Below, one piece after another: positions 29,442 to 29,615 of a stretch of 64,000 nt of DNA. The translations under genes and the position numbers were made by a program. Position 1 is the first letter of the stretch. Every line of letters starts with the position of its first letter. The notes beneath the pieces are model-generated. The model made no database searches. It worked only from the letters and a program-made list of their open reading frames with translations, and was not told the origin of the DNA. Source of the DNA: Escherichia coli (GTDB taxonomy: Bacteria; Pseudomonadota; Gammaproteobacteria; Enterobacterales; Enterobacteriaceae); the NCBI RefSeq assembly GCF_045037415.1, contig NZ_CP173438.1. The stretch is one strand, 5' to 3'.

Positions 29442-29615
29442 CTAGTTGTCGCTTTTACCGTGACTGCTCTTGCCACCTTTTTTACCTGCTTCAGATGCGC
29501 GCTGCGGGTCATTTTTGAAATTACCTCCGCTGTGCTGTCCACCTTTTTTACCTGCTTCTGATGCTCTTTCGCGGTCTTCTGCAAAATTGCCGGAACCGCC
29601 TCGATGGTTTGCCAT
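29442..29615 (-). CDS. ymdF: KGG-repeat stress-induced small protein YmdF
   Basis: Start set at ATG 29613-29615 (MANHRGGSGNFAEDRERASEAGKKGG…), 57 aa with duplicated RASEAGKKGG unit. Confidence 0.8.
   Translation of the reverse strand: MANHRGGSGNFAEDRERASEAGKKGGQHSGGNFKNDPQRASEAGKKGGKSSHGKSDN

Follow-up and report, generated by a model that had tools for sequence, protein, structure and literature searches.

Recurrent in-frame loss of one of two KGG units in ymdF of Escherichia coli and its probable origin by slipped-strand deletion

Does the number of repeat units in ymdF, a short gene of Escherichia coli annotated as encoding a general stress protein, differ between strains, and if so, by which route has it changed? 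The question arises from the window, i.e., the whole 64,000-nucleotide stretch of E. coli DNA that was analysed, for which a first-pass annotation had reported the motif RASEAGKKGG twice in the 57-residue YmdF protein together with a matching direct repeat in the DNA, and had proposed that such a repeat is prone to slippage, so that its copy number may vary between strains. The features on which the analysis of the gene builds are the following.

29442..29615, minus strand: ymdF coding sequence, encoding a small KGG-family protein that is basic, hydrophilic, and rich in glycine (open reading frame, Pfam KGG PF10685, RefSeq annotation)
29538..29603, minus strand: KGG unit 1, residues 5–26, RGGSGNFAEDRERASEAGKKGG (self-alignment at a 66-nt offset)
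29472..29537, minus strand: KGG unit 2, residues 27–48, QHSGGNFKNDPQRASEAGKKGG (self-alignment at a 66-nt offset; best Pfam stretch 32–52)
29622..29626, minus strand: Shine-Dalgarno sequence GGAGG, 6 nt 5′ of the ymdF ATG (read from the sequence; unchanged between E. coli, E. albertii, and E. fergusonii)
29357..29387, minus strand: terminator-like hairpin ACCGCCGG-UAGCC-CCGGCGGU with a U-rich tail (consensus scan and RNA fold)

The coding sequence on the minus strand (29442–29615) comprises 57 codons and a stop codon and is translated into the 57-residue product MANHRGGSGNFAEDRERASEAGKKGGQHSGGNFKNDPQRASEAGKKGGKSSHGKSDN. Identical DNA is found in RefSeq E. coli genomes, where it bears the annotations ymdF, 'general stress protein', or 'con-10 family general stress protein'; rutG borders the gene on one flank, and wrbA, yccJ, and agp follow on the opposite flank. 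The YmdF protein of strain K-12 (b4518) is identical to that of the window, both two-unit haplotypes carrying the accession WP_001273658.1 in their annotation. The position of the GGAGG sequence supports the start codon of the 57-residue form. An in-frame ATG further upstream extends the open reading frame to 29442–29645 on the minus strand (MMSIPRRRSV-MANH…, 67 aa), and N-terminally extended versions are produced by some gene callers (P0004, 89 aa; P0130, 45 aa). The hairpin is GC-rich, lies approximately 55 nt past the ymdF stop codon, where rutG and ymdF converge, and, judged by its predicted fold, may serve as a terminator.

Membership in the KGG family (PF10685) is well supported, with an E-value of 1.6e-18 and a score of 67 bits (cut-off 20.4) over two stretches of YmdF; an NCBIfam search with the protein returned no match. 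The small, hydrophilic, and glycine-rich composition of the protein (Gly 21%, GRAVY −1.71, pI 9.9, 3 of 57 residues hydrophobic) is hydrophilin-like, as is typical for this family. YmdF shares two Pfam units and its small, basic, glycine-rich, hydrophilic character with YciG, with STM14_1829/SEN1538, and with PA2146. YmdF, YciG, and Salmonella STM14_1829/SEN1538 have been described as RpoS-regulated small tandem-KGG proteins, with RpoS-dependent expression reported for ymdF, yciG, and SEN1538 and intrinsic disorder reported for the Salmonella KGG paralogues (PMC7161692). In that literature, these proteins are implicated in stress resistance and motility (PMC7161692; Oguri et al. 2018, through a citing paper). 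Unlike YciG, YmdF lacks the Walker-A-like tail QSGGNKSGKS (PMC9262955): no such motif follows its repeats, and the protein ends in KSSHGKSDN instead. As the Walker-A-like motif, which Pfam mentions in its description for YciG, lies outside the Pfam profile, it is not needed for KGG membership. The same KGG unit from which YmdF is made also builds proteins with more units, such as P. aeruginosa PA2190 and the distant three-unit enterobacterial homologue P0041. GsiB of Bacillus subtilis is another multi-unit KGG/hydrophilin protein.

The repeat itself was delineated by direct self-comparison of the gene, which places two perfect copies of a 20-nt core within the coding sequence.

29539..29558, minus strand: gene-proximal copy of the perfect 20-nt core, GAAGCAGGTAAAAAAGGTGG on the coding strand (direct self-comparison)
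29473..29492, minus strand: gene-distal copy of the perfect 20-nt core, GAAGCAGGTAAAAAAGGTGG (direct self-comparison)

Both structural statements of the first-pass annotation are thereby borne out: translation locates RASEAGKKGG at residues 17–26 and 39–48, and the corresponding DNA repeat contains the perfect 20-nt core at an offset of 66 nt. The repeated unit, however, is longer than the motif originally noted. The best self-match of the gene lies at 66 nt (22 codons), and the unit spans 22 residues in agreement with the 22-position Pfam model, so that residues 5–26 and 27–48 form two adjoining units with a period of 22 aa or 66 nt, each closing with AGKKGG. Across the whole unit, 43 of 66 nucleotides and 14 of 22 amino acids are identical between the copies, and within the RASEAGKKGG codons 26 of 30 nucleotides agree, the remaining four being synonymous differences in three codons (AGA/CGC, TCA/TCT, GGA/GGC). 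An exact repeat longer than 14 nt never appeared in 5,000 mononucleotide shuffles, and resampling of codons with the protein held fixed and the codon usage of the neighbouring genes gave a repeat of at least 20 nt in 1.5% of 5,000 trials; the DNA repeat is therefore genuine and extends somewhat beyond what the repeat in the protein would produce by itself. Neither a generic repeat search nor Tandem Repeats Finder reported the ymdF repeat; it has two copies only with an overall identity of 65%, and direct self-comparison was used for this reason. A search of positions 27500–31500 of the window with Rfam at a permissive E-value returned no RNA family, so that nothing points to the repeat being part of an RNA element instead of a feature of the protein. 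The internal duplication is the ancient architecture by which the KGG family (PF10685) is defined, common to yciG and to orthologues across the Enterobacteriaceae, and not a peculiarity of YmdF. Rare in-frame microvariants within 29473–29558 gain or lose one lysine in AGKKGG through a 3-nt change in the AAAAAA run, and a rare Ala-Ser duplication (RASASEAG) is also in frame (such microvariants are found in proteins P0027, P0037, and P0034); many frameshifted YmdF C-termini are each found on a single contig, and some of these, like some of the rare microvariants, may be sequencing errors.

Whether the number of units varies was examined in 5,426 complete E. coli genomes, 5,416 of which were matched by a 374-nt query across ymdF. 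A two-unit gene was present in one piece in 5,056 genomes. A one-unit gene, recognized by one uninterrupted long alignment across the deletion junction, was present in 350 (approximately 6.5%), and the diagnostic 44-nt one-unit junction was found in 346; with the original query, a few O157-like matches appeared as two-piece alignments whose overall extent fell 67 nt short of the query. Altogether, 5,406 of the 5,416 locus-bearing genomes could be assigned to either class, the remainder including disrupted alleles such as that of strain CUWW10, which carries an IS1. Three-unit alleles were sought and not found: the 44-nt junction expected of them occurs in none of the 5,426 genomes, and exact look-up of synthetic three-unit proteins (79, 81, and 77 aa) gave no hit among approximately 15 billion sequences. 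The number of repeats is thus not invariant, and the expectation of slippage-prone, variable copy number, derived at the outset from the sequence alone, is borne out by the population data as far as recurrent 66-bp loss from two units to one is concerned; no gain to three units accompanies it.

The structure of the one-unit allele is exemplified by E. coli O157:H7 F6321, in which ymdF is annotated with a length of 108 nt and encodes the 35-residue product MANHRGGSGNFAEDRERASEAGKKGGKSSHGKSDN. Aligned with the window, this gene lacks exactly 66 bp in frame, both breakpoints lying inside the 20-nt core, and the same gap is present in 11 further one-unit alleles.

29473..29538, no strand assigned: 66-bp segment absent from one-unit alleles (alignment with O157:H7 F6321)

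The placement of the gap is ambiguous, as any 66-nt frame from 29473–29538 to 29493–29558 yields the same product. The shortened protein (RefSeq WP_001273654.1) still matches the KGG profile with one unit (39 bits), and removal of the initiator methionine leaves masses of 5.75 kDa for the two-unit and 3.50 kDa for the one-unit form. The exact 35-residue sequence occurs on at least 1,000 contigs. In the Sakai record NC_002695.2, no gene is annotated at the 35-aa allele and only rutG lies under the match, whereas PGAP-annotated O157 genomes call the 35-aa gene. In the literature, the one-unit allele was mentioned in no paper found, a search for ymdF together with O157 returning incidental mentions only.

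The greater part of the one-unit genomes belongs to a single clone. Of the 350, 299 show at least 99% identity to the O157 haplotype and 51 a lower identity, and approximately 299 belong to typical O157:H7, all examined members of which carry one unit, including Sakai, EDL933, TW14359, Xuzhou21, and SS52. When the O157 haplotype with the 66 bp restored was used as a query, the closest two-unit alleles among the matches listed were those of O157:H7 493/89 and LSU61 (99.5%), followed at 99.2% by two-unit alleles of O157:H7 TR01 and of O55:H7 CB9615, RM12579, DEC5A, DEC5B, DEC5D, DEC5E, TB182A, and USDA5905. In the stepwise model for the emergence of O157:H7, 493/89 stands for the sorbitol-fermenting branch (O157:H−), and LSU61 is placed as an early intermediate. 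From the distribution of the alleles and this placement of 493/89 and LSU61, we infer that the deletion dates to the branch leading toward typical sorbitol-negative O157:H7. In every record listed, the 66-bp deletion separates typical O157:H7 from O55:H7 and from 493/89 and LSU61, both atypical O157 strains, a split that might lend itself to a simple PCR or mass-spectrometry marker, the specificity of which would be limited by the roughly 1% of unrelated strains that share the deletion by homoplasy.

Outside this clone, the one-unit allele recurs on diverse backgrounds. The DNA flanking the gene (approximately 770 nt, 1.7 kb for some strains) was compared between 12 one-unit and 6 two-unit alleles. 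The 12 one-unit alleles lie on eight flank haplotypes, and four of these haplotypes equal a sampled two-unit allele at every variable site: the flanks of the one-unit strains 2-C14-1 and X14-3 are those of two-unit K-12 MG1655, the flank of B19374 is that of R2, the flanks of AUSMDU00014361 and PI6 are those of 2015C-3121, and the flank of 20AR0734 is that of the window's own two-unit haplotype. Compared with the one-unit allele of O157, the alleles on these four haplotypes differ at 14–30 variable sites, some of which adjoin the deletion; the variable sites flanking it correspond to window positions 29457, 29472, 29559, and 29591. Since SNPs of the respective background persist up to the deletion, it is very unlikely that one deletion was distributed by recombination. 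The approximately 51 non-O157 one-unit genomes fall into at least seven flank haplotypes, for which the most parsimonious account would be seven or more separate deletion events in E. coli, a count that rests on the haplotype of approximately 770 flanking nucleotides and not on a genome-wide phylogeny.

The surrounding DNA varies in other respects as well. Strains 19AR0253 and EC21GDE043, which share one flank haplotype and a one-unit ymdF, have a rutG annotated as a frameshifted pseudogene that is about 106 nt shorter. In the rutG–ymdF intergenic region, a segment of approximately 175 bp at position 29378 is present in K-12-type and R2-type strains and missing from the window, from O157, and from others; this insert, presumably a REP-type element, carries a RefSeq partial 'hypothetical protein' pseudo-CDS in strain 2-C14-1. 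In 2015C-3121 and AUSMDU00014361, wrbA (equivalent to approximately 29990–30584), which is intact in the window, is replaced or interrupted by prophage genes encoding an antirepressor, a Hok/Gef fragment, and an LPD38-domain protein, consistent with wrbA being a known integration site of Stx phages. Between ymdF and wrbA, the 372-nt intergenic region is 95% conserved across E. coli, E. albertii, and E. fergusonii except for an 11-nt segment, GTCTATACCCA (29627–29637, minus strand), that lies just 5′ of the ribosome-binding site in E. coli and is missing from the two other species. Because this between-species indel directly follows the TATGAT located just 5′ of the ribosome-binding site, this hexamer is unlikely to be a −10 element. 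The sole match to a σ70-like promoter in a consensus scan, 225 nt upstream of ymdF, scored no better than shuffled sequence, and neither the consensus scan nor the alignment of the three species identified the ymdF promoter. The IS1A of strain CUWW10 (a 776-bp insert) is located 26 nt 5′ of the ymdF start, equivalent to window position 29641, between the gene and its presumed promoter, and probably alters ymdF expression in this strain.

Loss of one unit is not confined to E. coli. At the syntenic locus beside wrbA, yccJ, and agp, one-unit alleles are also found in E. albertii (C-terminus …KSGN), in E. fergusonii (…KSDS), and in Shigella flexneri. Two-unit proteins are by far the more common form in E. 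albertii and E. fergusonii: two-unit and one-unit proteins were counted in 1,183 and 95 index blocks, respectively, for E. albertii, and in 616 blocks and on 16 contigs for E. fergusonii. The two copies of the core differ by 2 nt in E. albertii and by 1 nt in E. fergusonii, which leaves 8–11 nt of perfect identity at the breakpoints, and E. albertii shows two different breakpoints (GGT…GGC and GGA…GGC). In Salmonella, a 33-residue one-unit YmdF (32 contigs) and a 38-residue one-unit YciG-like protein (5 contigs) exist. The paralogue yciG of E. coli, present in approximately 4,584 of 5,426 genomes (query aligned over at least 80% of its length), has a perfect repeat of only 11 nt at the same 66-nt offset, and a synthetic yciG allele deleted between these 11-mers matched 14 genomes over its full length, seven of them at 100% identity; the corresponding 37-residue one-unit YciG is found on 301 contigs. 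The two lowest-ranked yciG matches listed, one of them Nissle 1917, aligned over no more than about 60 nt of upstream sequence, beside yciF. The raw frequency of one-unit alleles is approximately 1.0% of non-O157 genomes for ymdF versus 0.3% for yciG, which is the expected direction and is confounded by clonal sampling. A perfect 20-nt core as a requirement for deletion was rejected, since E. albertii, E. fergusonii, and yciG undergo deletion with 8–11 nt of perfect identity.

These observations bear on two explanations that would remove the need for a repeatedly arising mutation. If the one-unit alleles were artefacts of sequencing or assembly caused by collapse of the short repeat, as assemblers can indeed collapse short tandem repeats and as some rare protein variants (frameshifts, the lysine gained or lost in the A6 run) may well be errors, they should not recur as they do in approximately 299 finished O157:H7 genomes from many laboratories, Sakai and EDL933 included, and be absent from every listed O55:H7 genome; moreover, the 66-bp period fits inside a single read on every platform and the exact 35-residue protein is found on at least 1,000 contigs, so that the probability left to this explanation is next to nil. 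A deletion that arose once and was then passed from lineage to lineage through horizontal transfer and homologous recombination, which would imply no proneness of the repeat to slippage, is suggested by the frequency of recombination in E. coli and the concentration of 299 of the 350 one-unit genomes in one clone. It is nevertheless very improbable in view of the one-unit alleles that retain the SNPs of their own background, four of their haplotypes being local two-unit haplotypes, of the alleles of E. albertii and E. fergusonii with species-specific substitutions and different breakpoints, and of the independent occurrence of an analogous deletion in yciG.

It therefore seems very likely that recurrent slipped-strand loss of one of the two ancient 22-residue KGG units accounts for the ymdF polymorphism. 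In the proposed mechanism, the nascent strand, or a processed single strand, would mispair between the two 20-nt cores during replication, which would remove exactly one 66-bp period and leave an in-frame 35-residue protein with one hybrid unit. Such deletions would be rare and recurrent, fixed in the lineage toward typical O157:H7 and sporadic elsewhere, and the single surviving core would not permit reversion by the same mechanism. The breakpoints lie inside the direct repeat and one copy is lost together with the spacer (a 66-bp gap, a 20-nt core), and the identical event recurs on at least seven E. coli flank haplotypes, in other species, and in yciG. Efficient RecA-dependent exchange is usually quoted to need approximately 23–27 bp of homology. 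As the 8–20 bp available here fall below this length and the signature resembles that of classic short-direct-repeat deletions, slippage or a related RecA-independent annealing process is probably responsible. Deletion hot spots between short direct repeats were reportedly described for lacI by Albertini et al. in 1982, and the ymdF deletions are like them in that the breakpoints fall in a short perfect repeat, one copy is lost with the intervening DNA, and the event recurs. They differ in that the repeat of ymdF is the core of a conserved protein repeat, so that deletion is in frame and produces a shorter, well-formed member of the same family. Slippage also predicts expansions to three units, and their absence from the junction search and the protein look-ups could result from rarity or from selection. 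In contrast to the multi-unit KGG proteins, the populations of Escherichia and Salmonella display only loss from two units to one and no gain.

Repeats in a stress gene and a recurrent change in their number might suggest a contingency locus, phase- or size-variable, in which units are switched reversibly as an adaptation. Only alleles with one and two units were found, however, and neither reading frame nor expression is switched: the 66-nt unit makes the change in-frame, with a 35-residue KGG product instead of an on/off switch, and reversion by slippage is impossible with one core left after deletion. The lack of three-unit alleles and of reversion sets ymdF apart from contingency loci as well as from multi-allelic VNTRs, and since the allele is found at approximately 1% outside O157 and is stably inherited within the O157:H7 clone, reversible adaptive switching is highly improbable. 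The unit number of ymdF is a one-way, two-state biallelic indel and not a dynamic variable-number repeat. A further proposal concerns the fate of the deletions and not their origin, namely that, with an ordinary supply of mutations, loss of a unit was fixed and recurs through positive selection instead of drift, the activity of the 35-residue protein being changed or lowered in a way that would be of benefit in certain niches, for instance cattle as the reservoir of O157:H7. In its favour, typical O157:H7 has the allele in fixed form while it is absent from its relatives O55:H7, 493/89, and LSU61, the deletion recurs in several species, and deletion of ymdF in E. coli BW25113 results in a thin biofilm with less biomass and in increased killing by H2O2, tobramycin, and ciprofloxacin (PMC9262955), so that the gene offers traits on which selection could act; ymdF also complements a Pseudomonas PA2146 mutant (PMC9262955). 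Hitch-hiking or drift would account equally well for fixation in one clone, and the three KGG paralogues of Salmonella are largely redundant, single mutants of S. Typhimurium showing wild-type growth at pH 4.5 and effects emerging only when mutations were combined (bioRxiv 10.64898/2026.04.09.717482), which would imply weak selection on any single paralogue. Positive selection for unit loss is accordingly judged unlikely. With the same low probability, one-unit YmdF might be non-neutral, the halving of this stress and biofilm protein changing what it does, its fixation on the way from O55:H7-like and atypical O157 ancestors to typical O157:H7 having contributed to an altered biofilm or stress phenotype of that clone and its recurrence in E. 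coli, E. albertii, E. fergusonii, Shigella, and Salmonella reflecting repeated selection and not mutation pressure alone.

Recurrent slipped-strand loss, the reading preferred here, is an ordinary class of mutation, and the gene, the KGG family, and the type of mutation are all already known; what is new is the detail at the population level, that is, how frequent the one-unit allele is, that it recurs, and that it has become fixed in typical O157:H7. The current understanding of the KGG family and of the mutation mechanism is unchanged by it. Studies on the function of YmdF and YciG will have to reckon with natural one-unit alleles. Some reference annotations omit the 35-residue gene. On a small scale and in natural populations, ymdF illustrates how a repeat protein can lose a unit in frame and without return.
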